DNA of 64,000 nucleotides from a plasmid: sequence record NZ_CP082905.1; one strand, given 5' to 3'. This document shows, piece by piece, positions 3,937-53,280 of this stretch. The position numbers and the translations under genes are program-made. How positions within the stretch are numbered: the stretch's first letter is position 1; every line of letters starts with the position of its first letter. The notes under the pieces were generated by a model. The model had not been told where the DNA came from, made no database searches, and worked only from the letters and a program-made list of their open reading frames with translations.

Positions 3937-4023
3937 TGCGATTTACCGCCAGCGGAGTTTTTCTTCTTGTCTTTTTTCAGAATCATGTCGAGAAGCACTA
4001 ATCCTATTAGGATTATCAGGTGA

Positions 4024-4140
4024 GCCCTTATGACATGTACTAATACGGTCGGTTTCGTACATGTAGAATATAGCCTGTCCGAAAGTTAGTGTTTTTAATT
4101 TCGGACATGCGCTATAATAAGTACACCTATTTCGTACACA
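4024..4140. promoter_or_regulatory. res-like accessory site and promoter region of the recombinase gene (repeated tgtac/gtaca dyads: acatgtactaatacgg...tttcgtacatgt, tttcgtacaca)
   Basis: Imperfect inverted repeats of a TGTAC core immediately upstream of the serine recombinase, as in resolvase res sites. Confidence 0.4.
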
Positions 4141-4150
4141 AAATAACTAC

Positions 4151-4747: not shown

Positions 4748-4839
4748 GTTGCTTTTCTGCGTATGTCCGCTTTGTGCCATAAGCGGACGTTATTCCGATA
4801 ACAAAGAGCGGAACAACGAAGAATATAAATAGCTAAACT

Positions 4840-13874: not shown

Positions 13875-14363
13875 ATGATGAAAAAGCTGGCAAGCTATCC
13901 GAAGCAGAATGGTCTGGCAAAGGCGCTGAGAGAGATTGGCCGCATCGAAAGGTCATTGTTTATGCTGGACTGGTTCAGGGATCCTTTACTGCGTCGACGC
14001 GTACAGGCGGGGCTGAATAAAGGTGAGGCTCGCAATGCCCTTGCGCGAGCGGTCTTTATGCATCGGCTGGGTGAAATCAGAGATCGGGGGCTGGAGAATC
14101 AGAGCTATCGAGCCAGCGGTCTGACGTTGCTGACTGCGGCGATCTCACTGTGGAATACGGTATATATAGAAAGAGCGATAGATTCTTTGAGACGAAAAGG
14201 GATCCCGATTAATGAGCAACTGATTACCCATCTGTCACCACTGGGATGGGAACATATCAACCTGAGCGGGGATTACGTCTGGAGAACGAACCTCAAACTG
14301 GGACAGGGTAAATACCGCGCATTACGCTCAGTGAATAGTAATGTGTACAAAAAACAGGCTTAG
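13875..14363 (+). pseudogene. tnpA: Tn3-family transposase TnpA, C-terminal 160-aa fragment
   Basis: [18 protein letters not shown]...[17 protein letters not shown] matches the Tn3 TnpA C-terminus; no N-terminus; bounded by IRs. Confidence 0.75.
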
Positions 14364-14396
14364 CGTAGGATAATTTCCGTTTTCCAAGCGGACCCC
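14359..14396. repeat. 38-bp Tn3-family terminal IR (reverse complement GGGGTCCGCTTGGAAAACGGAAATTATCCTACGCTAAG), right end of the tnpA remnant
   Basis: Sits immediately after the tnpA stop, as in intact Tn3-family elements. Confidence 0.7.
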
Positions 14397-14399
14397 AGG

Positions 14400-14974
14400 A
14401 AGGTCACCTCAGCGGCACGCTGCCGCTCGGTCAGGCCGCAGGTTTTCCGGCTCTGGACGTACCGGCAGATTTAATCAGTCGCCTGAACCGGAGTTTTGCC
14501 CGTGAGCTTGGCGACTGGCGGCGCGGACAGAAAGTCATGTTGATTGCCGAAACCGATCCGCCGGTGAAAAAATTCAGACAGCGTGACGGGAAACCTGTGC
14601 CGTACAGCACCTGCAGGGTTATCGATGCGGCCCTGATGACCGTCAGTGCCCGGTTTATTCCTCTCGACTCCTCCTGGGAGGGCGTGATCGAAGAAAAACT
14701 CTGGCAGGAGAAGCGGCATTTCATCAAGCCTCTGCGTTATGACGGCGAGGCGGACGTTTTCCCTGATTTTTTGCTGAAAGATGTGCCGGGCAGGGAGATT
14801 GTGCCGCTCGAAGTATTTGGTATGAACACGCCTGATTATCTCGCGCGTAAGGCGGTCAAGCTTGCACATTATCGCGAAGAATATGGCGAGGGGAACTGGT
14901 GGTGCTGGGACGCTTACACGGCAGGTGCTGCTAATAACATCCCGCCGTTTCCTGATAGCCAGCTCATAAAATAA
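14400..14974 (+). pseudogene. 5'-truncated ORF, cut by the Tn3-family end; its C-terminal region contains a possible PD-(D/E)xK-like motif
   Basis: The reading frame is open from the IR boundary with no start codon; 14537-14974 is only the ATG-containing tail. Confidence 0.4.
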
Positions 14975-15014
14975 GTCAGCCCGTGGCAGGGGAATTTCAT
15001 TCAAATCCCCGGGC

Positions 15015-15272
15015 TTATTTACTCTCTTCTTTCTGATAGACCGAATCGGTACCTTTTGGGAACTGCAGCGCGACAGATCGGTAGTGCTGCAGCCTTTCAC
15101 GGAAATATTCTCGCAGTCCAGCAGGCTGTTCCATTTCTGTCTGCTGTGGAATTACCGGCAAATTCAGACGTTCTTTATAAGCCACTCCGGAGGCTGCCAG
15201 GTCAACATTGATTTTATCCCGTTCTTCACTGGTACGGGCGGCAAGATTATGGCCAGTTTCAGTACGGTTCAT
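15015..15272 (-). CDS. hypothetical protein (85 aa); a truncated paralog lies at 8733-8891
   Basis: Translationally coupled to the upstream gene; homologous fragment elsewhere in the window. Confidence 0.45.
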   Translation of the reverse strand: MNRTETGHNLAARTSEERDKINVDLAASGVAYKERLNLPVIPQQTEMEQPAGLREYFRERLQHYRSVALQFPKGTDSVYQKEESK

Positions 15273-15628
15273 GATTTTGCGTCTTCATTGATATTAAAAA
15301 AACCAACTCTATCCGTTCTGCCATCAAGGGCACCAGGTAAAGGGAATAAGCCAAAAAAATCGTTGTAAACCAGTGGAATAATATGAGTTATATTAGTATC
15401 CAGCCCCAGATCCAGCATAGCCTGATACGCCTCCGTTCGGTTAGCAAACTCTTCAGCATATTCAGCATCAGATGAATAGATAGGCTCTCGTCTTTCGGTC
15501 TCATTTAAGGCAATAAAGGAGCGTCTTTCCGTATCAAACAGCGCAAATCCTACCACGCCAGCTATGTGGTCCTTTTCTAACTGTTGGTTAAGCAGTGCCA
15601 AATTTTTACGGGAAAATTTTGAGCTCAC
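15269..15628 (-). CDS. hypothetical protein (119 aa), first gene of a 2-gene operon
   Basis: ATGA overlap with the downstream 85-aa gene. Confidence 0.45.
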   Translation of the reverse strand: MSSKFSRKNLALLNQQLEKDHIAGVVGFALFDTERRSFIALNETERREPIYSSDAEYAEEFANRTEAYQAMLDLGLDTNITHIIPLVYNDFFGLFPLPGALDGRTDRVGFFNINEDAKS

Positions 15629-15699
15629 AATGTCCCCTTACAGTTATACAGCCGTTTCGTTATCCACTGGATAGAATAACAACAGGATCATATAGGCAT

Positions 15700-15871
15700 A
15701 AGTGTAGATCAACAAAGAATAAGATCTGACTGAACCCAGCAGGAATGCCCCTCTCAGGGGAACTCAATACACTATAGCGGGTGACCGATACACTGGAAAG
15801 GGTAATACATCCACTGTACAGGGTAGATAGTCCACTATACCGGGTGGAACTGCTCCACTGTCACGGGTAGT
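15700..15871. promoter_or_regulatory. iteron array / origin region of the RepFIB-like replicon (repeats of about ccactgtacagggta / ccactataccgggtg)
   Basis: At least five copies of a CCACTrTAC(A/C)GGGT(A/G) motif upstream of rep; more copies at 16795-16860. Confidence 0.7.
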
Positions 15872-16789
15872 ATGATAATACTGTCCACACCGGCGCTAAT
15901 GTTGAATAAATATATGGATAACAATAAGTTAGCTTTGGTTATAGAAGAAAAAACTAAAGATACAGGCGAAGTTATTCACCTGATACCTACACTACGTCAG
16001 ACTATCCAGCCCAAAGTCCTGTTGCGCTTAGGTGTGTTTGTTCCAACACTTAAATCTACTGGAAAGGGTGGCAGAAAAAACCACAGCATTGACGCAACAG
16101 AATCACTTTCACGCCTGTCCATTGTAGAGGGTGAAGGTTATGAGCAGATCCAGATTTATGGTCCACGCCTCGATATGGATACCGATTTTAAGGTCTGGGT
16201 CGGCATAATCTATGCGCTGTCTACGCTAAAAGTCGACAGTGAAAACCAGCTCATGGTTAATTTTGCTGATTTTGCAAAATATTGTGGCTTCGATACCAAA
16301 CGTATCGATCGGCAGCTTAAAATGCGTTTCGATGCATCTCTGACGCGGATATCCCGCACCAACATAAGCTTTGTGAAGCCCATACCCGGTACAGATGATC
16401 GAATAACCATTAACATGCATCTGGTCGAAAACACTTATTTTGACAGTAGCACGGGACAGATAGTCATTGTTCCTAACTCAAGGCTTAATACACTGTACAG
16501 GGTGGACGGTAAAACCAGACTGTATCTGAAGGCCCTACAAAAGCTTTCGCGCAAAGAGTCAGCCCAGGCACTGTACTTGTATCTGGCTGAACTGCCACCA
16601 ACGTTCTACCGGATTGGCTTTGATCGCCTACGTGAGCGTCTGCAACTGACCTCTCACCTGGGTAACCAGAACGCAACGGTTCGCAAAGCGCTGCAGCAAC
16701 TTAATGAAATTGGTTTTCTGGAATATACGGTCGAGAAAGAAGGAAAAGATTACGTTCTGAACATTCTCAAACGTAACACAAAATTATAA
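15872..16789 (+). CDS. repA: iteron-type replication initiator, Rep_3 family, RepFIB-like RepA
   Basis: VLLRLGVFVPTLKS, GPRLDMDTDFKVWVGII and RKESAQALY match IncFIB RepA / F RepE-family initiators. Confidence 0.85.
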   Translation: MIILSTPALMLNKYMDNNKLALVIEEKTKDTGEVIHLIPTLRQTIQPKVLLRLGVFVPTLKSTGKGGRKNHSIDATESLSRLSIVEGEGYEQIQIYGPRLDMDTDFKVWVGIIYALSTLKVDSENQLMVNFADFAKYCGFDTKRIDRQLKMRFDASLTRISRTNISFVKPIPGTDDRITINMHLVENTYFDSSTGQIVIVPNSRLNTLYRVDGKTRLYLKALQKLSRKESAQALYLYLAELPPTFYRIGFDRLRERLQLTSHLGNQNATVRKALQQLNEIGFLEYTVEKEGKDYVLNILKRNTKL

Positions 16790-16794
16790 AGCAC

Positions 16795-16860
16795 CCGGTA
16801 TAATGGATATCCACTATACCGGGCGTAATACCCGGTACAGTGGATATTATTTAACTAAGA
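16795..16860. repeat. downstream iterons of the RepFIB replicon (inverted pair ccactataccgggcg / cccggtacagtggat)
   Basis: Read directly. Confidence 0.6.
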
Positions 16861-16915
16861 CCAGTTCAGGCTACCTCATGAATCACCAGCGTTTCACAGG
16901 CACGTGAGACGGGGC

Positions 16916-16999
16916 TTATTTTAAGCGTTCCAGAACGATAATGATGATGGCCATTATCGGATGGATCAGCTTAAAGAAGAATAAAAGCTTATTGAGCAT
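16916..16999 (-). CDS. 27-aa hydrophobic peptide MLNKLLFFFKLIHPIMAIIIIVLERLK (possible type I toxin-like small protein); speculative
   Basis: Translated by hand; weak SD; no partner RNA was verified. Confidence 0.15.
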   Translation of the reverse strand: MLNKLLFFFKLIHPIMAIIIIVLERLK

Positions 17000-17341
17000 T
17001 TTTTCATCTCTTGCCGGGTAAGGTCCTTGCGCGAGTGCCTCTGGGTTACCCTTCGCGCCTGGTGCAACGGACCTACAGACGTCACACCTGACATACCTGG
17101 TTCAGGCTGGAACAGTTCACCGGTCCCCACCAGTTACCTGTTCTGGGATTTATTCCTAATAACAAAAAAATTTATTTACCCTAGTAATATCAGCAGGTTT
17201 CTTCCGGAAGCCTTACGCGTTATTTTGCCTTTCTTGAAAGCCAGTTTGCGATTCGTTATCCTTTAATGCACCTACAGACGTCACACCTGATTGATGGGAT
17301 GTCTAAAACAAAGCCGGTTCCCCAGCCAGGCTTTGAACTAA

Positions 17342-17363
17342 ACCCGCTACGGCGGGTTTTTTT
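17342..17363 (+). terminator. Rho-independent terminator (cccgctacggcgggttttttt)
   Basis: Perfect 7-bp GC stem followed by a T7 run. Confidence 0.6.
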
Positions 17364-18454
17364 ATACGTATAAGGTTGCTTTGTTGATAACCACTCCGGG
17401 CATAAGCGCTATATGTTGTGCTTGTTGTTTATAAAATAACAACATAGTGAGTATTCTAGTAATTAATCGCGTCTAAACAAGCCTTGATTTTCGCAAAGAA
17501 TTCGTGATCGCAAGGTGGTTAATTCCCTAAGTCCACGTTTCATAAAGCCAGCTAACTAAGTCAATTGTTTGAAAAAAAAACTTTAGAATTTGATCGAGCG
17601 CCTGGTTCTTGTGCATGTCGCTATTTTTTACGTTTCTGACAGGCTTTACCTTATGCGCGTAGCGCATGGGAAGGGACAAAGGCTGTTTCATGTCACGCTG
17701 ATGTCGAACGTCCCTGGAGACGCGCCGCAGGCGCCACAAAGCTATAAATTGCACAACTCCCACCACTCCCTGCAAAGCCTGACGGGCTTATCGCGATAAA
17801 TCAGGTTATCTAAGCCCTTTAGCCCCGGTGAGCGGGCTTAACGGCGCAGAGCGACGTTAAGGGCGTGATTTCCGGGGTCTTGTCCTCTGACGGCGTTTAA
17901 GGCCGTCAGAGGCTAGAGGCTTAGTTACATCATTCATTAAAGCCACTCCTGTTCCGGGCCGAAGGCCCGGGCGGGCGGGGCTTTTAATGGGTAGGGATAC
18001 GCTGATGTTACCGATATTTCCGATCCAGTTAACAGGCTTCTCTTCTTATGTTGTAACTAATATCATGCCCAACGCGAAGCGGTGGGAGGAACTTAATATC
18101 TGAGCGGCGCGGCCGTCAGGCCACTGCAAGCGAAGGCTACTTTTTTTTATTCACAATCTTACCGAAGATAAAGGATCACCATGCTACGTAAGTAAGCAGG
18201 GGATTAACTACAGGGTTTAGGAAGGTTTTGCGGGTTATGTGTTCTCTGTTTCCAGCTTTGTCCAGTTATTAGATTGCGGATTTATGTGGATAACCGGAAT
18301 GGAGGCCTAAAAAAAGACGCTGTCGCGTCCCGTATTTCCTTTTTTACTACTGTGAAACATTCGTAAGCTCAAAATACAGCCATTTTTATGAACCAGAACC
18401 AACGCCAAAAGCCCCAAAGAGGGGCATGATTTAGACAAAGTCTTTAGTGAACAG

Positions 18455-19501
18455 CTACGCTGGCGGTACGCCTGACTGGAAAAGCTCCATCTGGTACAGC
18501 TGTTGAATGGCCAGCTTTTCCAGCCGATCGGATGAGCAATAATAGGCTTCATCTGCCGACATGGATTTAAGAATATGTGTGGCCATCTCATGGACCTGAG
18601 CGTCCCACGGTAACTTCGCCAGTCTGTTGGCCCGTTTACGCTTTGCAGCCAGCTCGCGCCGGCGTTTGAGTGCCTGAGACGTCATTTTTTCTGCCCAGCG
18701 CCGGCGTGCAGCCTGTGGAGAAATGTCTTCATCCTCCGTCATTAGGCCCATTTCAATCAGCTGATGTCGTTCTTCGCTTCTTCTCAGTGCTTTTTCCTGC
18801 TCTTTTGCCAGTTTGACCAGATCGACGCCGAGTGCACGGAAACCTTTTTCTGTGATCCAGACGTATTTTGGTAACCATTGTTTAGCTGCACGGTCCCATT
18901 CCAGCTCACGCGATACATCAAGCAGACCAAACCTGATTTGCTCTTTGAGAAGGCGTGAAATCCGGGGAACCGTGATCTCCTGATCTTTAATCACATTACC
19001 CTTACTGTCTTTTGGGCTGAGTTCTCTGGCCAGTCGCGAAACACACATACCGACAGAATGCTTACCGGCATCACAGAAACTGATGAGAACAGGCCACATA
19101 GCATCCAGCAGGCGCTGTTTTTCGGGACGGAATGCGTATTTACGCCCCGCTTCAATGCGACCCTGAACATAGATTGGATGGCGGGACATATGAATGCGAA
19201 TCTGCGTGGTACCGGTCGCTTTATCCGTTTTTACGAGCCGGTTATAGGCGTAACCCAGCTGACCACCCAGCGTGCGGTAATGAGATGGCCGGAACCAGCG
19301 TGGATTTTCACACTTTGGCTTCGTGGAATGATTACCCCGCCGGCGCTTCGTTGGTTTTTTCAGCGGTAAGTGAACGGAATCGCCGCTTTCAGAAACCAGA
19401 AAGGAGGTAATTTCTCCGGCATCTACGCGTTGCCAGAAACGTACCTGCGCTTCTTCATCAAGCTGACTCCAGTGCACAGAGGCGTGATTTTTATCAGCCA
19501 T
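18455..19501 (-). CDS. repA1: IncFII-family replication initiator RepA1
   Basis: Architecture and motifs of the IncFII RepA family (348 aa, basic C-terminal tail); the adjacent upstream repA2/copB confirms the replicon type. Confidence 0.75.
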   Translation of the reverse strand: MADKNHASVHWSQLDEEAQVRFWQRVDAGEITSFLVSESGDSVHLPLKKPTKRRRGNHSTKPKCENPRWFRPSHYRTLGGQLGYAYNRLVKTDKATGTTQIRIHMSRHPIYVQGRIEAGRKYAFRPEKQRLLDAMWPVLISFCDAGKHSVGMCVSRLARELSPKDSKGNVIKDQEITVPRISRLLKEQIRFGLLDVSRELEWDRAAKQWLPKYVWITEKGFRALGVDLVKLAKEQEKALRRSEERHQLIEMGLMTEDEDISPQAARRRWAEKMTSQALKRRRELAAKRKRANRLAKLPWDAQVHEMATHILKSMSADEAYYCSSDRLEKLAIQQLYQMELFQSGVPPA

Positions 19502-20903: not shown

Positions 20904-23900
20904 CTACTCCAGCGTTTTTTGGGGTTTATGGCCAAACTCCGGCTCGGGTTCGCTGCGCTCATGGCGCATGACGTTTACTCCATCGTTCATCATCGTGGCG
21001 CGGTCTTCCCGCTCCGGCGACAGGTGATAGTCGCGGTAATCGAATGCCTCCTCTTCACGCAGCTCTTCCAGTGCCGCCGCAAGCGCAGCCTCGCGTTCGC
21101 TGTCCCTGTCATCCGGTGCGCTCCGCGCCTCATCGGGCATGACGGGTTCCGGCTCTTTCTCCTCCTGCTCCTGTGCCGCTTTAACGGCTTTCTCCAGCGC
21201 CTCGGCCTCGCGACGATCCAGCTCCTCACCCCCCGACTCTGCAGCTGCCGGCGCATTCCTGTCATCGTGACGCTCACTGTGTTCAGCCGCGAGCACCACC
21301 GGGCTGTCCGGGTTGTCCTTCATCAGCTGCAGCGCCTCAGCAATATCCGCGGCTTCCAGCACCTTTCCGTGCTTTTCCCCACGCTGCAGCACGATGCGGC
21401 TGCCGTCCGCTGCCCCTTCATAGTGAGCGGCAGAAAAATCCACTTCCCCGCTTGAGGGCGAAACGGGAACGTGCCAGTTGCCCCGCTGTCTTCCGTGCTC
21501 GTTAATAACCGGCCAGAGCATCTCCGGCGTTTTACCCGCCATAAACCGCGCATCCGCCGTCAGGTCCTGGTCAACCCGGTCCGCCAGTCGCGTCCCGGAC
21601 ACCGGCAGGCTTTTCTCCCATGCCTGCACCTCCCGTCCCGCACGCACGTCCTCCGCCCGCATCAGCACGTCGTGCACCGTCTGGCGCCGCCCGCTTTTGC
21701 TTTCAACCCGGTCGGCCCAGCCGGACAGGTTGTCGAAGTAGGTCTGAACGTGTTCTTTTGCCCTTGAGAGCTGCACATAGGTGCTGTCCAGGGCGGCCAT
21801 CATTTTGCGCGCCCCCTCTTCCCCGAACAGGCCAATCAGGTATTTTACTGACGCGCCCTGCGAGCTGTAGGTGGTGACGCCGTAGCCGTAGTCCAGATGA
21901 CGGTCGGCGTAACGCGCGGCCGGCTCAAATGACAGCTGACGGTCGCCGGTATCAAGCGTGATTTTTCCGTCCGCCGCAATGCCTGACACCACGGCCATGT
22001 CGCTGGCGCGCAGGTTGCGGTCGCGGTCGGTGGCCGTCAGGCGGATTTTTTCACCGGGGCTGATTTCCCTCGTCACCTCCTCAAATACCGCCACCTCTTC
22101 CTTGCGCAGTTCGGCAGGTCTGACCCAGCGGTCAGCGGCTCCGTCAAGCCCGGCCATGCGCACCACGCCGCTTTCTGCGTCTGTTTTGCCGATCCGGTAA
22201 TACTGTTCGCCCCGCTTAACCACTTTCCCCTCCTGCTCTTCCCAGAACGCCTGCCGCCCGAGGTCGGCATTACTGTTATTAATGCGCATCAGCAGCGGCA
22301 GCGTGACACCGTCACCCAGCGTGCCCTGCTCCCGAAGGCGCGCATGCACCGCCTCATTTATGGCCTGGCGATCGGCATTGAGCTCCGTCACGATAAGCGT
22401 GTTGTCACGCGCCTCCGCCGTGCGCCCGCTGTAATCGTCCGCAATAAGGCCGATGAGGTCCGGGCCCGTTTTCTCATCCGGACCGGTCTCCTCTTTTTCC
22501 ATTTTGCTGCCGTCCATCGTGCTGCTTTCCGGCACGTAGGCGCCCGGCTGGCGCGGCACGCTCTGCGGGCTGGTTTCGGCCGTTATCCGTACCGCCTCAC
22601 GCACGTTGCCGGCAATAACGGCCTCCACGGCAGGCTTCAGCGCGGGGATCTGACGCACGATTTCCTTCATCACCGCGACATCGGCCGCGCTGCGTTCAAG
22701 CGCCAGTGCAAAGGGCGCACCGGACTCCAGCGATTTCAGCTGGTCCTGGTCACCGCTCAGAACGGCGCGGCCGCCGCCTTCGGCGATCACGTTCATCAGC
22801 GAGGCCATCTGGGCGTTGCCGTTCATGGACGATTCATCGATGACAAAGAGGGTGTTTCGGAAGTCACGCGCCTGCCCGGCGGCCTGCCACTGGCTGCTTT
22901 CGCTGAGAAAGCTGGCGATGGTCTGCGAAGGAATGCCCGCGTCGGAAAGTTCACTGACGGCGCGGTGCGTGGGTGCCAGGCCGCGAATTTCCGGGCCGTC
23001 CGCCACGGCTGCCAGCGCCGCCGCCACGGTGCGGTACTGCGTGGTTTTCCCCACCCCGGCGTAACCCTGGATGGCGGTGAAGCGGTCGCGCGTGGTCAGG
23101 ATAAGGTTGCCCGCCCCGCGCTGCCCCTCCGTCAGGCCAGCCGCGTTCTCCTCACTCAGCCCCCCTGTCAGCAGCGGCTTCACGCTGTTTTTTCCTTCGG
23201 CGACGTGGCGCAGGATAGATACTTCGTTTTCAAAGTTTTCGCGCGAGATGTATCTGCCTGCCGCGCCCTGCTCCGCGCTGAGTTCAAAAATCTCGCCGCG
23301 CTGCACCAGGCGTGACAGCTCCTCCTGCGCACGATCGGGGGTTATGCTGCGGTCTGTACTGATAACGTTAGCCAGCACCCGGACCCCCGTGAACGTGACG
23401 TCCGTGCCGGCGGCTTTCTCAATGGCCAGGCGCATTACGCGCTCCGGCTGCGACATCCTGCGCGATTCCAGCTCGCGCAGCGCGTCGGTCAGGTCGCTTT
23501 CGCCCGAGAGCGACTTAATGCCCTGCGTCACGCTCACCACCGGGCGGTTTTCCTCCAGCCGGCGGCCGATGGTGACCTCGTCCAGCGGGGTGAAGGCGAT
23601 GACATTTGAGCCGCTGCGGCGCAGCATGTTGACGGTCGCGTCGTTCACTTCTTTGCCCGCCAGCACCGCCACCACGCTGCCCTCCGTGCGCCGCGTGGCA
23701 CCAAAGGACTCTGTATAGGCGTAATCGGCGTACAGCGGCGCGTTGCGGTCCAGCTTCACGCGCTCGCCTTTTGCGTTTTCCATCAGGATGACGTCCTTAA
23801 ACAGCCAGCGTCCCTCTTTCACACCGGTGACGGTCAGCCGCTCGCCGCTGCCGGCACGGCTGCCGAGCTCAGCCGTGGCGCGCAGCTGCTCGCCCTCTCG

Positions 23901-26024
23901 CAGCTCCAGCTTTTTCTCCCGGAACAGCCGGTAATGGCTGTCAATGCTGCTGATGCTGATCCCATGTTTCTGGCCCTTTTCGTCCGACACCGTCAGCAGG
24001 TTGTGACGCTCGCTGACGCCGGTAATGGTAAAAACCGACTTCTGCCCCGGCCCCTCGTGCTGCTCCAGCACCATGCCCGCGCGGTACACGCTGCGGTCGT
24101 TGCGGTTGGTGGCGTCCAGCCACACCGGCACCCGTACCGTGGCCTCACCCAGTACCCGTCCGAGCTGGCCCTCATCGGTCAGGATTTCCCGGGTGCGGGC
24201 CGTGAGCTGGTCGCGCGTGCGCGCGTTGCCCGCCTGCAGCGATACCGGACGCCCCAGCGCCTTTTCCTGGGCGTAGTAGCGCGCCGCCACGCTGAGCCGG
24301 TCTTCTACCGTGTCCTTCTGCACCATCGTCACGCGTACGTTTTCGGTTTTCGGGGTGGCGGTGAACTGCTTCACGCCCGCGCTGCTCAGCACTTCGGACG
24401 CAAAGCCCGCCGTTCGCCTGGCGTGCGTGTCGGTCACAAGCGTGGTGCCCTCCTGCTGCGCGGCCGCTTTCAGCACGTCGTGCAGCCCGGAGGTATTAAA
24501 CCGCTCAGCCTCCGCGACCAGCACCAGCGGACGTGCCGGCAGCTCAGCGGTTTTCATCTCCTCCGCCGTCATAAGCATCACACCGGGTTTATCCCCGAAG
24601 GTGGCCTGCTGGCGCTTTCGCGCAGCTCCGTCGGCCGCCACCACGATTAACGGACGTTTGTTTTCGCCGGCCATCGCCATGATGCTGCGGTTCAGATCGC
24701 TGATGAACTGCGTGCCGCCGCGCACATCGATGAGCGACACGGCACGATCGCCGTCAGCCACCTGCACCAGCACGCCCTTTTCTCCCGCCAGTGCCAGAAG
24801 CCCGCCGCGTTTCTCCGCAAGACCTGCGGCCAGCTGCGCCAGGCGCGCCTCGTCGCGGACGTGGGCTGCGGTGGTGAACAGCGTCTGGTTCTTGTCCACG
24901 GCGATCAGCTGACCGCGCCCGATGGCATTATCAATGGCACTGCGGGCCTGACCGTACACACCCGGCTCAACCGGGACGTGATTCAGCACGCTCGTCATCA
25001 CGTCGTCGTAGGTCACGCGCACGCTTTTTGAGGACAGGCGATCAATCGCCTCGCGCACCGCACCGTCCAGCAAGGAAGGTGTGGCCACCTTTTTCTCTTC
25101 ATTGGCGCTTTTTGCCTCCAGCGTCTGGCGGCGCGCCGCCACTTCCTGCCTGAACGTCTCCGCATCAAAACCGGTACCCTTCAGCACTGACTGCCAGTGT
25201 TCGCGCAGCGTTTCGGGATCTTCAAAATGTTTGGCCTGCCGGGAGTCGAGCGCAGCCATGCTCTTTTGCTTCGCCGTGGCGTTCTCGCCGACCAGATCGA
25301 CTATCTCTTGGCGGCGCGAGGAAAACGGCTTTACCGGCACGCCGGTGATGTCCCATTCGCCGCGCGGGCCGGTGTCTTCCGTCTGGTAGCCCGCCGGCTC
25401 AATAATGGAACGGAAATGGCCGCGATAGAGCGCGCCGATGCTGACCTGCTCGTTCCACACCACGTCGGTAAAGCCCTGTTTGCCGTTGATATCGGTGGAA
25501 AGGGTTTTCCAGCCGTTTTCCGAGAGCGTGGCGTTGGCAATGACCGCGTGCGTGTGCATCGCCGGGTCCAGGTTGCGGCTGGTATCGTGCATGAAGGTGG
25601 CAATTACCAGATTGCCGGTTTTCTCCATTTCGGTGATGCCGTCGGTCATGGTGCGCGTGGTGGCCAGCTTCTCCACCTCGTCCAGCGTGCGCCGCACCGC
25701 CTCTTTATGGGCATCCACCAGGAAGGTATCGCCGGTTACCAGCGCCAGTACCGACGCGCTTTTGGGCGCCGAGAACGTCAGGTCATAGCCCGGGCGGTGT
25801 TTATTAATCCCGCCCTCCATGCGACGCATGTCAGTGCCGTCCGGCAGCTGACCTTCCAGCACCGCCACGAAAGTATCGCGGTTTACCGGGCCTTCCAGGC
25901 CCAGGTTTTCCGCACCGGTGCCGTACCACTCCGTGGACTGCTCGCCGAGAAAGTAATAGTTATCTTCACTGGTATAGTAGGCGCCGGCCTTGCCGGCGTT
26001 TTTGACTGAAGAGACTGACAGCAT
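20904..26024 (-). CDS. traI: TraI relaxase-helicase (MobF)
   Basis: 1706 aa; N-terminal relaxase MLSVSSVKNAGKAGAYYTSEDNYY; RecD-like helicase motifs (GYAGVGKTT). Confidence 0.95.
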   Translation of the reverse strand: MLSVSSVKNAGKAGAYYTSEDNYYFLGEQSTEWYGTGAENLGLEGPVNRDTFVAVLEGQLPDGTDMRRMEGGINKHRPGYDLTFSAPKSASVLALVTGDTFLVDAHKEAVRRTLDEVEKLATTRTMTDGITEMEKTGNLVIATFMHDTSRNLDPAMHTHAVIANATLSENGWKTLSTDINGKQGFTDVVWNEQVSIGALYRGHFRSIIEPAGYQTEDTGPRGEWDITGVPVKPFSSRRQEIVDLVGENATAKQKSMAALDSRQAKHFEDPETLREHWQSVLKGTGFDAETFRQEVAARRQTLEAKSANEEKKVATPSLLDGAVREAIDRLSSKSVRVTYDDVMTSVLNHVPVEPGVYGQARSAIDNAIGRGQLIAVDKNQTLFTTAAHVRDEARLAQLAAGLAEKRGGLLALAGEKGVLVQVADGDRAVSLIDVRGGTQFISDLNRSIMAMAGENKRPLIVVAADGAARKRQQATFGDKPGVMLMTAEEMKTAELPARPLVLVAEAERFNTSGLHDVLKAAAQQEGTTLVTDTHARRTAGFASEVLSSAGVKQFTATPKTENVRVTMVQKDTVEDRLSVAARYYAQEKALGRPVSLQAGNARTRDQLTARTREILTDEGQLGRVLGEATVRVPVWLDATNRNDRSVYRAGMVLEQHEGPGQKSVFTITGVSERHNLLTVSDEKGQKHGISISSIDSHYRLFREKKLELREGEQLRATAELGSRAGSGERLTVTGVKEGRWLFKDVILMENAKGERVKLDRNAPLYADYAYTESFGATRRTEGSVVAVLAGKEVNDATVNMLRRSGSNVIAFTPLDEVTIGRRLEENRPVVSVTQGIKSLSGESDLTDALRELESRRMSQPERVMRLAIEKAAGTDVTFTGVRVLANVISTDRSITPDRAQEELSRLVQRGEIFELSAEQGAAGRYISRENFENEVSILRHVAEGKNSVKPLLTGGLSEENAAGLTEGQRGAGNLILTTRDRFTAIQGYAGVGKTTQYRTVAAALAAVADGPEIRGLAPTHRAVSELSDAGIPSQTIASFLSESSQWQAAGQARDFRNTLFVIDESSMNGNAQMASLMNVIAEGGGRAVLSGDQDQLKSLESGAPFALALERSAADVAVMKEIVRQIPALKPAVEAVIAGNVREAVRITAETSPQSVPRQPGAYVPESSTMDGSKMEKEETGPDEKTGPDLIGLIADDYSGRTAEARDNTLIVTELNADRQAINEAVHARLREQGTLGDGVTLPLLMRINNSNADLGRQAFWEEQEGKVVKRGEQYYRIGKTDAESGVVRMAGLDGAADRWVRPAELRKEEVAVFEEVTREISPGEKIRLTATDRDRNLRASDMAVVSGIAADGKITLDTGDRQLSFEPAARYADRHLDYGYGVTTYSSQGASVKYLIGLFGEEGARKMMAALDSTYVQLSRAKEHVQTYFDNLSGWADRVESKSGRRQTVHDVLMRAEDVRAGREVQAWEKSLPVSGTRLADRVDQDLTADARFMAGKTPEMLWPVINEHGRQRGNWHVPVSPSSGEVDFSAAHYEGAADGSRIVLQRGEKHGKVLEAADIAEALQLMKDNPDSPVVLAAEHSERHDDRNAPAAAESGGEELDRREAEALEKAVKAAQEQEEKEPEPVMPDEARSAPDDRDSEREAALAAALEELREEEAFDYRDYHLSPEREDRATMMNDGVNVMRHERSEPEPEFGHKPQKTLE

Positions 26025-46909: not shown

Positions 46910-47206
46910 TCAGGCGACCCAGTGCCGTTTGTAGCTGTCTGGCAGGATGCTGATAAAGAAGCGCATCACTGAGGTGGGCAGGCACCAGTACGCAAGGTTG
47001 AGAAGATACTGAGAACCGCGGCCTTTCTTGAGATGACGAATTCCGACCACGGCAGCCAGGAGCGTGGGGCCGAAAATCCACATGTTGAGAAAAACTGCCA
47101 GCAGCGCCAGCGGCACATACAGGCAGAACTCATCAGGTGGCAGCCCCACGAAGCGCCTTTGCTCGGAAAACGTAGCCGCATAGGTATACCGGTCACGTTT
47201 TTCCAT
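46910..47206 (-). CDS. traL: TraL
   Basis: 98 aa two-TM protein immediately downstream of traA. Confidence 0.85.
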   Translation of the reverse strand: MEKRDRYTYAATFSEQRRFVGLPPDEFCLYVPLALLAVFLNMWIFGPTLLAAVVGIRHLKKGRGSQYLLNLAYWCLPTSVMRFFISILPDSYKRHWVA

Positions 47207-47215
47207 AAGCAGTCG

Positions 47216-47545
47216 TTAAGAAGGGATCACGTTAAAGGCGACGTTAACGAAAACCAGCAGCGCGGCGATGCTACCGAACAGCGCCAAGTTTTTGGTTTTG
47301 ATGTAGGTGAACGCGATGAATGCAATTTCCAGAATATAAAGGATGTAAACGACAGCTGAATTACTACCAAAGGTATCGTTAACATCAGTTTTGGCCCCGG
47401 CGAAGTAGTCTACGGCGTGGGCGGGCATGGCAGAAACAGCCAAGATCGCCAGTGCAGAGAACAACGCAGTCTTGTTCACTTTTTTCCACGCTACCGCCCC
47501 TGCCTTGCGGCAGTAATTTACACACGAAGAGAGAGTGCCCTTCAT
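47216..47545 (-). CDS. traA: TraA propilin, pED208/IncFV-like subtype
   Basis: Leader ...SAMPAHA followed by AVDYFAGAKTDVNDTFGSNSAVVYILYILEIAFIAFTYIKTKNL, resembling the pED208 pilin rather than the F pilin. Confidence 0.85.
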   Translation of the reverse strand: MKGTLSSCVNYCRKAGAVAWKKVNKTALFSALAILAVSAMPAHAVDYFAGAKTDVNDTFGSNSAVVYILYILEIAFIAFTYIKTKNLALFGSIAALLVFVNVAFNVIPS

Positions 47546-47828
47546 AGGATTTTTCCTCAGTTAGAGATATAATGATGAGTTGGTTAAACTATCTTTTGTT
47601 GCTGTCGGTATTACCTTAAGTCAAATTACTGTTGTGCCGGTTACGCCTCCTTTACATATCTGTGGTATCGCAGCAGAAACTTACGTTTTCCTGACGGGTT
47701 GACGTTTTTTTACGCTTCCGGATCGCATGCTTCAATTTAAGTTATTGGTCTTACTGATCAATTTCATTTATCGTGATGGTGAGAATTTTCGCTTGTCTCA
47801 CTAACTGGCTGAATGGAAAAGAAAAATT
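47546..47828. promoter_or_regulatory. divergent promoter region between traA (minus strand) and the 442-aa multi-HTH gene (plus strand)
   Basis: 284-bp AT-rich intergenic region; no traY ORF present. Confidence 0.5.
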
Positions 47829-49157
47829 ATGGCTGACACTGCCGACCTGGTTGTTCTTGTCGCCGATCCGGCGGGCTTTGCGGCTGAATTTTTTAGGATA
47901 AATCATGAGGTACCCTTAACTGTCCTGCTTAATGAAGCCCTGTTTCATTACAGGCGCGACCCCGGCTGGTTTGAAGTCATCGTCAGAGACAACCGCTACT
48001 ATGCCTGCCAGCTCGTCACGATTCCCCTGCTCGTATTTATTAAAAAACGCGTTCCCGCCAGGCAACTACAGGCAGCTGCGGAACGAACGCTCGCGCAACT
48101 GAGCATGTATTCAGATACCGCTGATCCGGACGCCTGGATAATGATAAATGCGAATTTTTTCTCCCCCCTTCCCCGTCCCTGCGTAAACCTCTGGCAGGCT
48201 CGTAAATTAAAGAACAGCCTGGAAAAGGCGATATTTACCGATGCGGGTGAATACGCCGGACCGGAAAAAAAGCCTGCACTGCCGGCGGTTAAAAATACCG
48301 CGGAGGCTGCTGATGAAAATGTACCCACGACGCAGAGAAAAAGAAAAAACGGCCCCGACGCGGAGAAAGTCATGGCGCGCGTTATGCTTGGCTGGCGCGT
48401 CAGGGATATATGTGAAGAACAAAACTGCTCTGAAGCCTACGTTTATAACCTGATTAAAAAACGCAAGGGAAAATCCGCGATGGATTACCGCTGGAAGCAG
48501 TGGGAACTGATTTCAGCCATGTATCATGCTGAACCAAAGATGACGCTGGAAGAAATTGAAAAGGCCTGCGGGGTAACGCGGGCGGGAATTTATCATGCAA
48601 TAAGAAAAATAGCAGAGCGTGATGGAAAAGAAATTACGCCCCGTGAGAGAGAAAAAAAACTGACACCGGAAGACGTCGAGACGATAAAACAAAAATTAAG
48701 CCAGGGCATGCTCAGGAAAGATATTCTTTCCGAATACCGTATTTCGGCAGAAACGCTCATCAGATACATAGGCACACGCGATGAGCACAGGGTAATATCC
48801 GGTGACCTCAAAGAGGTTGCGGTGCGACTGCGGATTCAGGGTAAAACGCTCCAGCAGACTGCTGATATTCTCGGTGTGAACCTTGACTGGGTAAAAAAAG
48901 CGTGGAGAGAAAAAAAGGATTCGCCTGTTATTAAAGAAAAACGCGTCAAGTATGATAATCGCAATGTGCTCTCAAAACGCGACCGCGATCAGGCTGTGAA
49001 TGCTGTTCTGCGTGACGGACATACACGCAAGCAGATTTATACGCAGTACGGAATTAATGCACTCACGCTGCGGCGCTATATAAGAGATGCACAAAAAAGA
49101 GAGACAGAAGCATTAAAAGAAGAGGAAAAAGATTCAGACCAGCATAATGAAAAGTAA
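47829..49157 (+). CDS. 442-aa protein with an unknown N-terminal domain and five tandem HTH-like repeats; candidate transfer regulator occupying the traJ/traY locus in reversed orientation
   Basis: Long ORF in AT-rich DNA; repeated units such as ICEEQNCSEAYVYNLIKKRKG, LEEIEKACGVTRAGIYHAIRKIAER, RKDILSEYRISAETLIRYIG, LQQTADILGVNLDWVKKAWREK, RKQIYTQYGINALTLRRYIRDAQK. Confidence 0.6.
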   Translation: MADTADLVVLVADPAGFAAEFFRINHEVPLTVLLNEALFHYRRDPGWFEVIVRDNRYYACQLVTIPLLVFIKKRVPARQLQAAAERTLAQLSMYSDTADPDAWIMINANFFSPLPRPCVNLWQARKLKNSLEKAIFTDAGEYAGPEKKPALPAVKNTAEAADENVPTTQRKRKNGPDAEKVMARVMLGWRVRDICEEQNCSEAYVYNLIKKRKGKSAMDYRWKQWELISAMYHAEPKMTLEEIEKACGVTRAGIYHAIRKIAERDGKEITPREREKKLTPEDVETIKQKLSQGMLRKDILSEYRISAETLIRYIGTRDEHRVISGDLKEVAVRLRIQGKTLQQTADILGVNLDWVKKAWREKKDSPVIKEKRVKYDNRNVLSKRDRDQAVNAVLRDGHTRKQIYTQYGINALTLRRYIRDAQKRETEALKEEEKDSDQHNEK

Positions 49158-49202
49158 AGAGTTATGCCTGACGCAATACAGAAAGCATCAGGCACCTGAT
49201 AA

Positions 49203-49604
49203 TTATTTAAAATATTCCTGCAGTTTCCCTGCCACGCGCTCATTGACAGCTTTTAACCACTCAGGCTCAAGGATCATTTCGTTTTTAATGACTTTAGCAG
49301 GATCGACGGTTTCCTTCTGAATGCCAAAAATGGCGTCAGTTATAAAACCGCTGACCAGAACGTTCTTGGCGATAAATTCCAGCTTCTGGTCCAGCGTCTT
49401 TTCTGAAGTGTCCTTGCTGATTTTATTTTCATAAACGCGAAGTCCCAGCTTAAACATCTCCATGATAAAAGCTGACCGGTTCGCCGTTTCGCGTGACTCT
49501 CCGTCTTCAAGCTTCTTTTCAACGTGTGCATCAACCTTTTCTATAAGTGAAAAGGGAACGGTAAGATTGACGCGATTACTTTTGGGTGTGTTCTGCTCTG
49601 ACAT
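49203..49604 (-). CDS. traM: TraM (RHH oriT-binding relaxosome protein)
   Basis: VNLTVPFSLIEKVDAHVEKK...SAFIMEMFKLGLRVYE parallels F TraM; it is adjacent to oriT. Confidence 0.85.
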   Translation of the reverse strand: MSEQNTPKSNRVNLTVPFSLIEKVDAHVEKKLEDGESRETANRSAFIMEMFKLGLRVYENKISKDTSEKTLDQKLEFIAKNVLVSGFITDAIFGIQKETVDPAKVIKNEMILEPEWLKAVNERVAGKLQEYFK

Positions 49605-50017
49605 ATATTTTGCCTCATAACCTGATATTAGAGCGAACCGTAACCGGATGACCGGGCGACGGATTGTTCATGCTGCATGAGAAAATAAACTCAACGCACC
49701 CACTTTTCAAGTAACCACAAAGTAACAACAAAGGGCTTCAACAGTGTCTGCACAGACACTTCTAAGTTCAAATATTAGTAAGTACTTGTTTTTAATAGCA
49801 GCACTTCGCAGTTACTTACAAGGAACTATTAAAGCACTATAAAGTTTCTTTGAAGAAATTTCGTTATGGGCTAAAATTTCTACGATTTACAACTAACTAA
49901 CTGATATTAAATAATTAAAACCGCAAAAATAAATTTGCGAGTGGTGTGTAAAATCCCACTTCTTATGATATTATTGAGTTAATAAGCACCCCCGAACTTT
50001 TCAAATCAGGAGCCGCT
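49605..50017. other. oriT: oriT region: nic-like core GCGAGTGGTGTGTAAAATCCCAC (about 49936-49958), an 18-bp perfect palindrome AGTGTCTGCACAGACACT (49743-49760), A-tracts
   Basis: Resembles the F-family nic region (TTTGCGTGGGGTGTGGTGCTTT); lies between traM and orf169. Confidence 0.7.
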
Positions 50018-50518
50018 ATGCGTTTATTTATACACGCTGCAGCCCTGCTGGCTACAGGCATTTTCTCAGCCAGCGTGAATGCGGACTGTTTTATTAAAGC
50101 CGGTGAATGGTATTCCATTGATCCGGACTACCTGCGTGCTATCGCATGGCAGGAATCCCGCTACAATCCTGCCGCCATAAATACGAACAAAACCAAAGAC
50201 GGAAAGCCCGGCAGCAGCGATTACGGCATCATGCAGATTAATTCGGTGACCATGCGCGGATTACAGAAAGAATATCCCGGCCTCAGTAAAGAAAAGCTCC
50301 TCAGCGATCCGTGCCTGAATATTTTCATCGGTGCCATGCTGCTGCGCCGTAACTTCAATCAGTACGGCACAACGTGGCTGGCAGTGGGAATGTATAATGC
50401 GGGAATGAAAAATATTCCGGTGACGATCAAGAACCGGTATAACTATGCGATGATTATCGACGCACATTATAAGGCCATCAAGGCGGGTAAAATCCCACGT
50501 ACGGCAATCAACGGATGA
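50018..50518 (+). CDS. lytic transglycosylase (orf169 / gene X / P19 family)
   Basis: Signal peptide and SLT-domain motifs (AIAWQESRYNP, GIMQIN, AYNAG). Confidence 0.9.
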   Translation: MRLFIHAAALLATGIFSASVNADCFIKAGEWYSIDPDYLRAIAWQESRYNPAAINTNKTKDGKPGSSDYGIMQINSVTMRGLQKEYPGLSKEKLLSDPCLNIFIGAMLLRRNFNQYGTTWLAVGMYNAGMKNIPVTIKNRYNYAMIIDAHYKAIKAGKIPRTAING

Positions 50519-50777: not shown

Positions 50778-51632
50778 TTATGCTTTCATTTCAGAAAGTA
50801 TTCTGTTTATTTCACCGTGAACGCCCTGACTGTGCCAGAAGCAATCCCGGCCGACCCGGTACAGTTCGCCCGATTTAAATCGTGCCAGCGTAATTTCCTC
50901 TCCCTCCAGGCTGCTGCCATATTTTTTAGCGATGGTATCCACCGCTTTTTGTTTCATGGCATCGGAATAATTTCTGTCAGTAAAGACATAACCCACTCCG
51001 CCGAAAATACGATTAAAGGGAGACGCACTGGAAACAGACATATCCTGCATGGGATCGAAATAGCTGTCTTTATACTTATCAGTGACAGATTTAACTTCCT
51101 CCTCCGTAGGTCCGTCTGTCCAGATAACGCTTACGCTGTCATAACTGCGCTTGCGAACGGAAAATTTAATGCCCGGAAACTTCGCCTTAAGTTCCCTGCG
51201 TATATTTGACGTGACCTGTACCGCGCCGTTTTTATCCTGCGAAAGCGAAGCATATTCTGGTGCCGTTTTCAGACGCTGACATTCCGCTTCATATTTGCGG
51301 GCTTCTTCCTCCCGCGCCTGCTTTTTACGGCGTTCTTCTGCCTCTGCCTGTTTTACGATGCGCGTCGTTTCTTTACCGCTTTTTATTTCCGGGAATATGC
51401 TCCACTGTTTCCCGTAAAGGATACTTTCAGGCAGCGCGCGCGATATTCCGCCGCTCTCGAATGCAATGTCAAATGTCGCATTCCCGCCGTACGAAACGCA
51501 TCCCGAAAGTGAACCCACTGACGCCGGTTTCTGCTCGCCGTGGATCGCAAAAATCACACCCCGTCCGCGATTGTAAAGAACTGTGCTGACAACCTGCCCC
51601 ACAACCAGAGACTGCGCATTCTGTATTTTCAT
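50778..51632 (-). CDS. hypothetical leading-region protein (284 aa) with a coiled-coil/charged central segment
   Basis: ORF only. Confidence 0.4.
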   Translation of the reverse strand: MKIQNAQSLVVGQVVSTVLYNRGRGVIFAIHGEQKPASVGSLSGCVSYGGNATFDIAFESGGISRALPESILYGKQWSIFPEIKSGKETTRIVKQAEAEERRKKQAREEEARKYEAECQRLKTAPEYASLSQDKNGAVQVTSNIRRELKAKFPGIKFSVRKRSYDSVSVIWTDGPTEEEVKSVTDKYKDSYFDPMQDMSVSSASPFNRIFGGVGYVFTDRNYSDAMKQKAVDTIAKKYGSSLEGEEITLARFKSGELYRVGRDCFWHSQGVHGEINRILSEMKA

Positions 51633-51698: not shown

Positions 51699-52289
51699 TC
51701 AGAACGGGATATCGTTTAAGGTGGTATCAGCGGCACCGGCAGTTACCTGAATGTCTTGCGCAGGATTCAGGGCGCTTTCCAGTGAGATGATGCCGCGTGC
51801 GACGTCGCTGGCCTGGTAATAATCAAGCCCTGCATCACACGCTGCATGAAACCTGTCGAAAAACTTTTTCGCCTCTTCCGCCATTACTGAGGAGGAGCGC
51901 CGTATATACTCCCGGCAGGCGTCCTGCCATGAGGCAGTGCGGTAATAAATTTGTCCCCGGCTGGCAATGATGTAACGTTCCGCAGAGATGTCGCCCACGT
52001 CGTACAGCGCCGTCATGCCACGGGCTGAACTCGTCAGACGCGGCAGCGCGCGATGTCCCGCCGCCAGTAATGCCGCCACTTCAGTTTCATCGAGCAACAG
52101 CACATCTGCGCCATAACTGCCGTTTCGCGTCGGATAGTGCTTTCCCTTTGCAGGCGTGGCGTTTTCATTCCCTGCGTCAGTGTTATGCCAGCGGGTGCGC
52201 AGATCGTTCGCGCTGACGCAGATTTTCTGGCCTTTAACCCATGTTTTGGAAGCTTCTGAAGCGGCGATGTTGACGTTCTGTGTGTTCAT
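51699..52289 (-). CDS. hypothetical leading-region protein (196 aa) with the shared N-terminal leader MNTQNVNIAASEASKTW
   Basis: Starts inside repeat R1. Confidence 0.5.
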   Translation of the reverse strand: MNTQNVNIAASEASKTWVKGQKICVSANDLRTRWHNTDAGNENATPAKGKHYPTRNGSYGADVLLLDETEVAALLAAGHRALPRLTSSARGMTALYDVGDISAERYIIASRGQIYYRTASWQDACREYIRRSSSVMAEEAKKFFDRFHAACDAGLDYYQASDVARGIISLESALNPAQDIQVTAGAADTTLNDIPF

Positions 52290-52977: not shown

Positions 52978-53280
52978 CTAAAAATCGAACCCGGCAGCCT
53001 TCGCCAGTTTAATGAATTTTTTATAATGCGCTGCGCTTACCGGGCAGATGTGTCTCCCGTCTCGCTGCGTACCTGTGCTGACTGCATAGCTATAGGCTTC
53101 ATTCATTTTTTCCGGGTAGCATTTCCGGAATTCTTTCAATTTTTTCAGAGAACTGAACTCATAAATCTCAAAGTCTGCGTGATCCCCTGCCTTACTCCCC
53201 TCAGCCAGTAAAATTTTTGGGTATTCATTCCATGTTTTGGAAGCTTCTGAAGCGGCGGTGTTGACGTTCTGTGTGTTCAT
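52978..53280 (-). CDS. hypothetical leading-region protein (100 aa) with the leader MNTQNVNTAASEASKTW
   Basis: Starts inside repeat R2. Confidence 0.45.
   Translation of the reverse strand: MNTQNVNTAASEASKTWNEYPKILLAEGSKAGDHADFEIYEFSSLKKLKEFRKCYPEKMNEAYSYAVSTGTQRDGRHICPVSAAHYKKFIKLAKAAGFDF

Follow-up and report, generated by a model that had tools for sequence, protein, structure and literature searches.

By what means does an F-like plasmid control its transfer (tra) operon when the regulators expected just upstream of that operon are missing? The question is raised by a 64,000-nt plasmid stretch of sequence record NZ_CP082905.1 (hereafter the window, possibly not the complete plasmid), in which the slot between traM and traA is taken by a single plus-strand gene (47829..49157) for a 442-amino-acid (aa) protein with several helix-turn-helix (HTH) units. 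On balance we favour, with some reserve, the view that this protein, which we call the regulator for convenience, may be an autoregulated transcription factor that acts on the tra operon via a cluster of conserved palindromic elements.

For the control of conjugation, F-like plasmids serve as the principal model. Fernandez-Lopez et al. reported that they swap regulatory modules between lineages, the machinery being kept (PMC5102898). According to the same study, TraJ is found together with FinOP in group A, an unrelated TraJV in group C and the double ribbon-helix-helix (RHH) protein EntFR in group D, whose plasmids come from Enterobacter, Pantoea and Erwinia, and no regulator was recognised in groups B and E. 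TraJ itself combines an N-terminal PAS dimerisation domain with one C-terminal LuxR-type HTH (PMC5102898).

A plus-strand gene in the traJ/traY slot

The original prediction held that a long plus-strand open reading frame (ORF) replaces traJ and traY, is divergent from traA and ends convergently 45 bp from traM. The ORF map agrees on each point. The gene, which was delimited from its ATG-start ORF, its homologues, its substitution pattern and an AlphaFold2 (AF2) model, sits in the traJ/traY slot on the strand opposite to the operon, between traA (47216..47545, minus strand; pilin and first tra operon gene; TIGR02758 E = 5.5e-12, relatives being annotated as pilin TraA) and traM (49203..49604, minus strand; Pfam Tra_M 43.6 bits, cut-off 27.7), and its stop lies 45 bp from the convergent traM stop. 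The distance from the traA start to the regulator ATG is 283 bp (47546-47828) and not the 284 bp first given, the divergent spacer itself being as described. The only ORFs on the operon strand between traM and traA are short ones antisense to the regulator gene, none of them of traJ or traY type. That the long ORF is a genuine gene is supported by homologues of 39–100% identity and by purifying selection, the ratio of non-synonymous to synonymous substitution rates (dN/dS) being 0.14–0.18 against six relatives.

Neither TraJ nor TraY could be recovered under another guise. A phmmer search (--max) with F TraJ, F TraY and Serratia TraY against the 990 stop-to-stop ORFs of the window gave nothing better than E = 0.96, and F TraM, the positive control of the same search, retrieved the window TraM at 3.6e-6. 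The best match of F TraJ among all window ORFs was an unrelated one (E 5.2), and there was no Pfam or NCBIfam match to TraJ. Pfam TraY, to which Serratia TraY scores 103 bits, has no match in the regulator protein, and the N-terminus of the latter has no match to a PAS domain; nor does the protein contain an RHH fold, its DNA-binding part being all-helical in the AF2 model. The predicted unlikeness of this architecture to TraJ (PAS plus one LuxR-type HTH) and TraY (RHH) is thereby upheld. A hidden small TraY-like ORF in the spacer was considered and rejected: the spacer ORFs are at most 51 aa long, and the one compared across loci (47727..47804) is unconserved. As to fertility inhibition, Rfam returned no match to FinP or the traJ 5′ untranslated region at E <= 1 in the window, just one chance snoRNA-type match below its gathering score, and no FinO-type domain was found among ten other window ORFs scanned, six of them downstream of traI. 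A conventional traJ encoded elsewhere, named by the original prediction as evidence that would speak against it, was not found within the 64-kb window, which may be less than the entire plasmid.

The regulator family is small and confined. It comprises 71 clusters among 5.8 billion, and its named members all belong to Pantoea, Mixta and Erwinia, bar one genome labelled Enterobacter; the source databases call them 'hypothetical', 'helix-turn-helix domain-containing' or, in the case of JGI, 'transposase-like'. The closest match is a contig of Mixta sp. Marseille-Q2659 (L007), which is nearly identical to the window and encodes a regulator protein 99% identical to that studied here. In all intact loci examined, down to about 40% protein identity, the order is traA (minus), a spacer of about 283 bp, the regulator gene (plus), traM (minus), the oriT region and an SLT transglycosylase gene (plus). 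In PLSDB, the 11 plasmids with this type of TraM (at least 68% identity) are precisely the 11 that carry the regulator gene (11/11). In a 76-kb metagenomic contig (L029), a repA fragment stands in place of the traA side, and traA and traL are gone; the regulator gene (4001-5170 of this contig) is a pseudogene, frameshifted and without its first 24 codons, next to an intact traM, oriT and SLT gene. Such decay after the loss of tra genes fits a role tied to the tra operon and not to oriT processing.

Five HTH units and an orphan N-terminal domain

Five tandem HTH repeats had been predicted, and five were found. Pfam families match separate stretches of the protein above their gathering cut-offs (HTH_23, 43 bits against 24.6; HTH_7, 39.2 against 23.8; HTH_28, 33.4 against 25; HTH_29, 28.5 against 28.1). 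The AF2 model, made from a 27-sequence alignment with a mean predicted local distance difference test (pLDDT) score of 75, displays a folded N-domain, a disordered linker and three-helix units at residues 178-213, 217-265, 280-314, 325-362 and 383-439, with one additional helix preceding the fifth. Since profile–profile comparison (hhalign) connects all five with 83–96% probability, they are of one HTH kind, probably derived by duplication. This kinship is detected solely by profile–profile comparison; BLAST self-comparison of the protein finds no internal repeats.

The units, all encoded on the plus strand, are 39–54 aa long, so that the uniform length of 40 aa initially proposed does not hold. 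Unit 1 (aa 176-214; 48354..48470) has helices at 178-186, 191-198 and 202-213 and the HTH_28/HTH_29 matches at 181-214, and unit 2 (aa 215-268; 48471..48632) has helices at 217-232, 240-247 and 251-265 and is related by hhalign to unit 1 (89%) and unit 4 (83%). They are followed by unit 3 (aa 278-316; 48660..48776; helices 280-291, 296-302 and 307-314; HTH_7 at 274-313) and unit 4 (aa 322-364; 48792..48920; helices 325-336, 341-348 and 352-362; HTH_23 at 331-361). Unit 5, or HTH5 (aa 380-421; 48966..49091), which hhalign relates to unit 3 (96%), contains invariant columns and is the best-conserved part of the protein: its mean pairwise identity is 0.82, as compared with about 0.57 for HTH1–4, 0.43 for the N-domain and 0.14 for the linker. 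In the 27-sequence alignment, Y407, G408, N410 and L412-I418 do not vary, whereas I409 and A411 hardly do, which gives the motif YG(I)N(A)LTLRRYI, and the recognition helix NALTLRRYI is almost invariant. A full-length Foldseek search yielded low-confidence matches only, owing to the flexible linkage of the domains.

The part that precedes the HTH units had been described as an unknown N-domain of 170 aa. No relative of it was detected; the length was not borne out, since the region divides into an alpha/beta domain, folded and some 141 aa long (aa 1-141; 47829..48251, plus strand) and a disordered, weakly conserved linker of about 30 aa (aa 142-175; 48252..48353, plus strand; pLDDT <50 at 142-173). 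Modelled alone, the domain is predicted confidently (pLDDT 85; predicted template modelling score, pTM, 0.79), with strands at 7-11, 17-21, 48-52, 55-62 and 102-107 and helices at 27-39, 64-74, 78-90 and 121-133; L30, R43, G46, W47, C60, P66, P100, I104 and P113 are invariant. No fold relative was found by Foldseek against viral models at E <0.2, and no sequence match in Pfam, NCBIfam, PHROGs or PADLOC. When 1.84 billion representative proteins were searched exhaustively with HMMER, just five full-length cluster representatives were retrieved, the remaining matches being generic multi-HTH proteins that align from residue ~120 onward, and a profile of the N-domain only retrieved nothing beyond fragments of its own family.

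The divergent control region

The region between traA and the regulator gene (47546..47828) was delimited by its length and by conserved blocks, and was compared in 20 loci whose regulator proteins are down to 40% identical. It is conserved: the spacer is 283 bp long in 14 of the 20 loci and 276–294 bp in the remainder, and it contains a nearly invariant 7-N5-7 palindrome in all 20. In the window this candidate operator (47744..47762) reads ATTGGTC-TTACT-GATCAAT and is the sole close match to the palindrome; in relatives it reads ATTGATC-N5-GATCAAT, contains two GATC (Dam) sites and lies at about -76 from the regulator ATG. The core TGATC-N5-GATC occurs once per locus in the 20 related loci, 70–84 bp upstream of the regulator ATG, and is missing from the F, Serratia and Klebsiella loci compared. 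In Erwinia typographi (L024) the sequence is ATCGATC-N5-GATCGAT, both arms being altered with the symmetry preserved.

Twelve bp to the left of the palindrome lies an invariant TTCAA (within CTTCAAT, 47730..47736), a third half-site of the ATTGA type; ATTGA/TCAAT occurs at least twice per locus (mean 3.1). On the minus strand, CTTCAA reads as a -35-like TTGAAG, which is followed after 17 nt by a -10-like TAAAAA (47707..47712, minus strand). Here GCGTAA is invariant; the -10-like hexamer lacks the final T of a -10 element and was not called by the promoter scan, and we infer that TTGAAG-17-TAAAAA is the best, albeit weak, candidate for a promoter toward traA. A consensus scan of the window and three divergent relatives disclosed no near-consensus sigma-70 promoter toward traA in any of the four loci, and the same scan does call promoters in the oriT region; the lack of a strong promoter would fit dependence on an activator. 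In locus L005 a plus-strand promoter-like sequence, TTGATT-17-GATAAT, has the palindrome inside its spacer.

Two further blocks are conserved. The first, GAGATATAATGAT (47564..47576; consensus GGGATATAATGAT), contains a perfect TATAAT on the plus strand and stands beside the traA ribosome-binding site, about 20 nt from the traA start; the second, GCCTCCTTTAC (47645..47655), reads AAGGAGG on the minus strand with no start codon after it. The idea that the presumed leader of traA folds into a conserved RNA structure was tried and discarded (RNAalifold consensus -3.9 kcal/mol, negligible covariation).

Proposed role of the regulator

These observations suggest the following mechanism. A sequence-specific factor of the plasmid's own would occupy, in this F-like (MOBF12) lineage of the Erwiniaceae, the slot held elsewhere by TraJ/TraY. 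It would bind an operator cluster made up of the 19-bp palindrome and the adjacent TCAAT half-site, which lies upstream of both genes, about 190–215 bp from the traA ATG and about 76 bp from the regulator ATG; the near-invariant HTH5 would be the likeliest reader of the invariant half-sites, and the remaining four HTH units may make extra, lineage-specific contacts along the AT-rich spacer. Binding would activate or de-silence the weak, non-consensus promoter of the ~26.6-kb traA-to-traI operon and would also restrain the regulator's own divergent promoter. The orphan N-domain may supply oligomerisation, or a signal or partner input, and the two operator GATC sites may confer Dam-methylation sensitivity on binding. 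The inferred parts of this scheme are the binding to the conserved elements, its activating or repressing sign and what the N-domain and Dam contribute.

An autoregulated transcription factor of this kind is supported by the strict synteny, the fixed spacer with its invariant palindrome, the lack of a near-consensus promoter toward traA in the four loci scanned and the decay of the gene after tra loss. It also has a precedent in the alternative regulators that other groups of F-like plasmids carry at this locus (PMC5102898). It is also in keeping with the conservation of HTH5, in which the most conserved segment of the protein would match an invariant DNA target. In our view the regulator is more likely to be an activator or anti-silencer than a repressor. 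For the claim that it is the master regulator of the transfer operon, as originally put forward, the support is thus circumstantial (synteny, spacer, palindrome, promoter scan and the decayed L029 gene).

Several points weigh against this interpretation. A 7-N5-7 palindrome needs just two HTHs, which leaves five units unexplained, and a host factor might just as well be what binds it. No covariation between the palindrome and the HTH recognition helix is demonstrable, the palindrome being too invariant. In the window itself it is mismatched (ATTGGTC), with a G at 47748 where the 19 other loci have an A, and one of the two GATC sites is thereby lost. The promoter assignments are weak (-10 TAAAAA), and the half-site and -35 calls are not independent, since TTCAA serves as both. 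The argument from the pseudogene depends on a single locus, L029. Finally, activation and repression cannot be told apart from sequence, and in conjugation operons a divergent regulator is frequently a repressor.

The window differs from L007 a second time at 47729 (GCATGCTTCAA vs GCATACTTCAA), beside the invariant TTCAA. This change and that at 47748 could be regulatory mutations, altering for example repression or activation.

A more elaborate version of the proposal, which we regard as rather doubtful, is that one five-HTH polypeptide, with its orphan domain for sensing or oligomerisation, replaces both TraJ and TraY by forming a complex of fixed geometry over the entire 283-bp spacer, in which alternately oriented ATTGA half-sites and further conserved blocks would be read and the operon switched on in a Dam-sensitive manner. 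If true, master regulators of conjugation would gain a new class, in which a protein fold not seen before serves as the input domain.

Alternatively, the regulator may be a repressor of tra, that is, a fertility inhibitor that binds the palindrome and the flanking half-sites, shuts both divergent promoters and is relieved through its N-domain, in the manner of Rco of pLS20 or PrgX of pCF10. This would agree with a divergent gene and a palindromic operator candidate between the two genes, with the palindrome of L005 inside a plus-strand promoter spacer, a typical repressor position, and with the expectation of another brake on transfer, since no FinOP-type inhibition was detected. However, there is no near-consensus promoter toward traA to be repressed, the palindrome sits farther upstream than the best -35/-10 candidate on the minus strand and does not overlap it, and the slot holds activators in other F-like groups (PMC5102898). 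We therefore consider this alternative unlikely.

It seems less probable still that the regulator is mainly an architectural accessory of the relaxosome, a TraY substitute that would bend oriT for nicking by TraI and perhaps control a promoter in addition. TraY of F has two sites of action, oriT and the PY promoter. TraY is missing from the window and kept in a sister lineage with a different cassette at the locus (see below), and five HTHs on flexible linkers would be suited to the wrapping of long DNA. Yet the oriT repeats covary with TraM and not with the regulator, the palindrome is confined to the traA-side spacer with none in oriT, and L029 retains oriT, traM and the SLT gene next to a decayed regulator gene. 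Five HTHs reading the oriT repeat array were likewise considered and dropped, as the covariation of the repeats with TraM residue 13 calls for no other binder.

We attach a similarly low probability to the idea that the palindrome is a host-factor or Dam/SeqA-type site and that the regulator acts on other plasmid or chromosomal genes. The invariance of the palindrome core in loci whose proteins diverge to 40% identity, the two GATC sites and the fact that a simple dimer suffices for a symmetric site would all be accounted for in this way. Against it, HTH5 itself is almost invariant, and the site is found at a fixed distance from the regulator start in all family loci and is missing from the Serratia, Klebsiella and F loci, whose hosts have similar global regulators; moreover, the palindrome is not known to fit the consensus of any global regulator of enterobacteria, a point on which no systematic search was made.

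The notion of a transposase remnant or domesticated fragment (IS630/IS3-type N-terminal HTHs), inserted by chance and without a role in transfer, is very improbable and largely refuted, since the JGI name 'transposase-like protein' of some members and weak NCBIfam matches to N-terminal HTH stretches of IS630, IS1, IS3, IS21, IS481 and IS66 proteins are outweighed by an IS630 score of only 23.6 bits (cut-off 100) over ~50 residues (profile positions 3-49 of 299), by a missing DDE domain in a protein that ends after HTH5, by an N-domain unique to the family and by the fixed position, fixed spacer and purifying selection seen family-wide.

Comparison with known systems

Like TraJ of F, R1 and pSLT, the regulator is encoded between traM and the start of the pilus genes and would, as a plasmid-specific DNA-binding protein, control one long tra operon through an AT-rich region of weak promoter strength. 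There is, however, no sequence similarity, and an orphan alpha/beta domain with five HTH_23/HTH_7-type units has little in common with the TraJ architecture. Moreover, TraJ is encoded co-directionally with the operon and is under FinP/FinO control, whereas the regulator gene lies on the opposite strand and neither FinP nor FinO was detected. TraY of F and EntFR are, like the regulator, DNA-binding proteins encoded just upstream of traA, and EntFR is a described replacement of TraJ in other F-like plasmids of Erwiniaceae and Enterobacter (PMC5102898). Both are small RHH proteins encoded on the operon strand, in contrast to the divergent, 442-aa regulator, which has no RHH. Group D plasmids were not detected by tblastn with the TraM of the present lineage.

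A sister lineage, with TraM proteins 52–57% identical, is represented by Serratia marcescens pSMC2 (L025, 5435-9471) and Klebsiella pKPN-b0b (L026); dozens of clinical Klebsiella plasmids belong to it. The cassette that it carries between traM and traY codes for a response regulator with BetR-HTH and receiver domains, two uncharacterised proteins and a hybrid histidine kinase. This presumed regulatory module occupies the same locus and, like the regulator gene, points away from the pilus genes, and divergent orientation at the slot is accordingly not unique to the regulator family. The difference is that it consists of four genes, forms a two-component system and leaves TraY in place. Homology between the regulator and the HTH protein of Serratia/Klebsiella at this locus was considered and rejected, none being found; that the sister lineage carries a non-homologous cassette there marks the slot as a hot spot for module replacement. 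Literature searches on conjugation regulators of Pantoea, on conjugation proteins with tandem HTHs and on the two-component cassette found neither module described.

The original prediction had recommended a comparison with multi-HTH regulators, which revealed a shared generic HTH fold. Cbp1 of Sulfolobus (PDB 2lvs, deposited as CRISPR repeat binding protein), which combines several three-helix HTHs in one polypeptide, gives the best sequence match among natural proteins of solved structure (E = 0.0023), with a local Foldseek match (probability 0.97). Membership of the AraC/XylS family was not obtained: HTH_AraC scores 15.4 bits as compared with a cut-off of 26.6, and Foldseek gives merely local resemblance (E > 0.2). 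The likeness to Cbp1 and to AraC/MarA-type proteins is thus generic to the HTH fold, and none of them shares the N-domain, the context or the five-unit arrangement. In Cbp1, AraC/MarA-type and other tandem HTH proteins, several units read extended DNA targets. Four unrelated proteins (P0081, P0103, P0109 and P0114) contain 4–8 tandem units of the HTH_7/23 type, two of them with HNH-nuclease-like motifs by eye; tandem HTH_7/23 arrays hence recur in proteins that look mobile-element-derived.

A divergent regulator gene is also found in Gram-positive conjugative plasmids. Rco of pLS20 and PrgX of pCF10 are repressors encoded divergently from conjugation operons, with operators in the shared intergenic region and known anti-repressor or peptide inputs; they belong to protein families and hosts unrelated to those considered here.

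The oriT region and neighbouring genes

The oriT region (49605..50017) contains an F-like nic sequence, TTTGCGAGTGGTGTGT (49934-49949), which was located in an alignment of oriT regions and which we take to resemble the nic sequence of F. It also contains many G(T/C)AAC repeats with a phasing of ~11 bp, AGTAAC being found for example at 49710-49715 and 49721-49726. The repeats are of the GCAAC form in five loci (L003, L006, L009, L013 and L024), in which residue 13 of TraM is Tyr or Ala (NRV-Y/A-LT), and of the GTAAC form in 14 loci, in which it is Asn, so that the covariation holds in 19 of 19 loci. The repeats can accordingly be regarded as TraM sites. Residue 13, encoded at about 49566-49568 and located in the N-terminal beta-strand, is pointed to by the same covariation as a probable specificity-determining residue. 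Residue 9 shows a tendency of its own, Ser with AGTAAC and Arg with GGTAAC.

The SLT transglycosylase gene (50018..50518, plus strand; ORF map and profile match) lies past the oriT region. On its far side, a leading-region protein (50778-51632, minus strand) contains LPD30 and LPD29 (large polyvalent protein associated domains) and is encoded beside the SLT gene in several relatives (L006, L029). Two other leading-region ORFs (51699-52289 and 52978-53280, both minus strand) have near-identical first 17 residues, MNTQNVN-I/T-AASEASKTW, and then diverge; this common start may represent a 5′ module, or a signal, that the two have in common. Between the convergent stops of the regulator gene and traM, an inverted-repeat scan located a hairpin, TGCCTGACGC-N10-GCATCAGGCA (49165..49194), possibly a bidirectional terminator.

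The tra operon runs over ~26.6 kb from traA through traL (46910..47206, minus strand; profile match), TraE, TraK and TraB onward to TraD and TraI, the gene for the latter (1706 aa; ORF map) lying at 20904..26024 on the minus strand. A MOBF relaxase TraI, TraM, the TraA-L-E-K-B-V-C order and the F-like nic sequence identify the system as F-like (MOBF12/MPF-F). It is a deep-branching one, given that the first 300 aa of TraI are ~52% identical to classical F-type TraI. Plasmid pPALTYR11Z of Pantoea alhagi (L028) encodes a TraI N-terminus 98.7% identical to that of the window and has TraD; it was rejected as a comparison locus, being a deletion derivative in which other DNA takes the place of the rest of the type IV secretion system and of the traM–regulator locus and an IS3 element lies alongside. 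Past traI there are a Rep3-type initiator (15872-16789), an IncFII RepA-like gene (18455-19501) and a Tn3 transposase fragment (13875-14363), and no traX- or finO-type gene was recognised at 13875-19501. The G+C content is ~57–66% in the tra structural genes (21000-47000) and 40–49% in the regulator gene, traM and oriT (47000-50000), a contrast that is consistent with a control region evolving separately and possibly targeted by H-NS.

Significance

The locus adds a sixth, undescribed regulatory solution to those of the F-like plasmids. What sets it apart is the five-HTH architecture, the N-domain without detectable relative, the opposite orientation and the lack of TraY. The scope is narrow and the family small; the compactness of the system (one gene, one 283-bp region, one invariant palindrome) eases testing. 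Two questions are thereby served, namely how an operon of ~27 kb can be switched on when TraJ, TraY and FinOP are all missing, and in what way DNA is read by an array of tandem HTHs. On the practical side, the system bears on how genes move among Pantoea, Mixta and Erwinia associated with plants, insects and humans.

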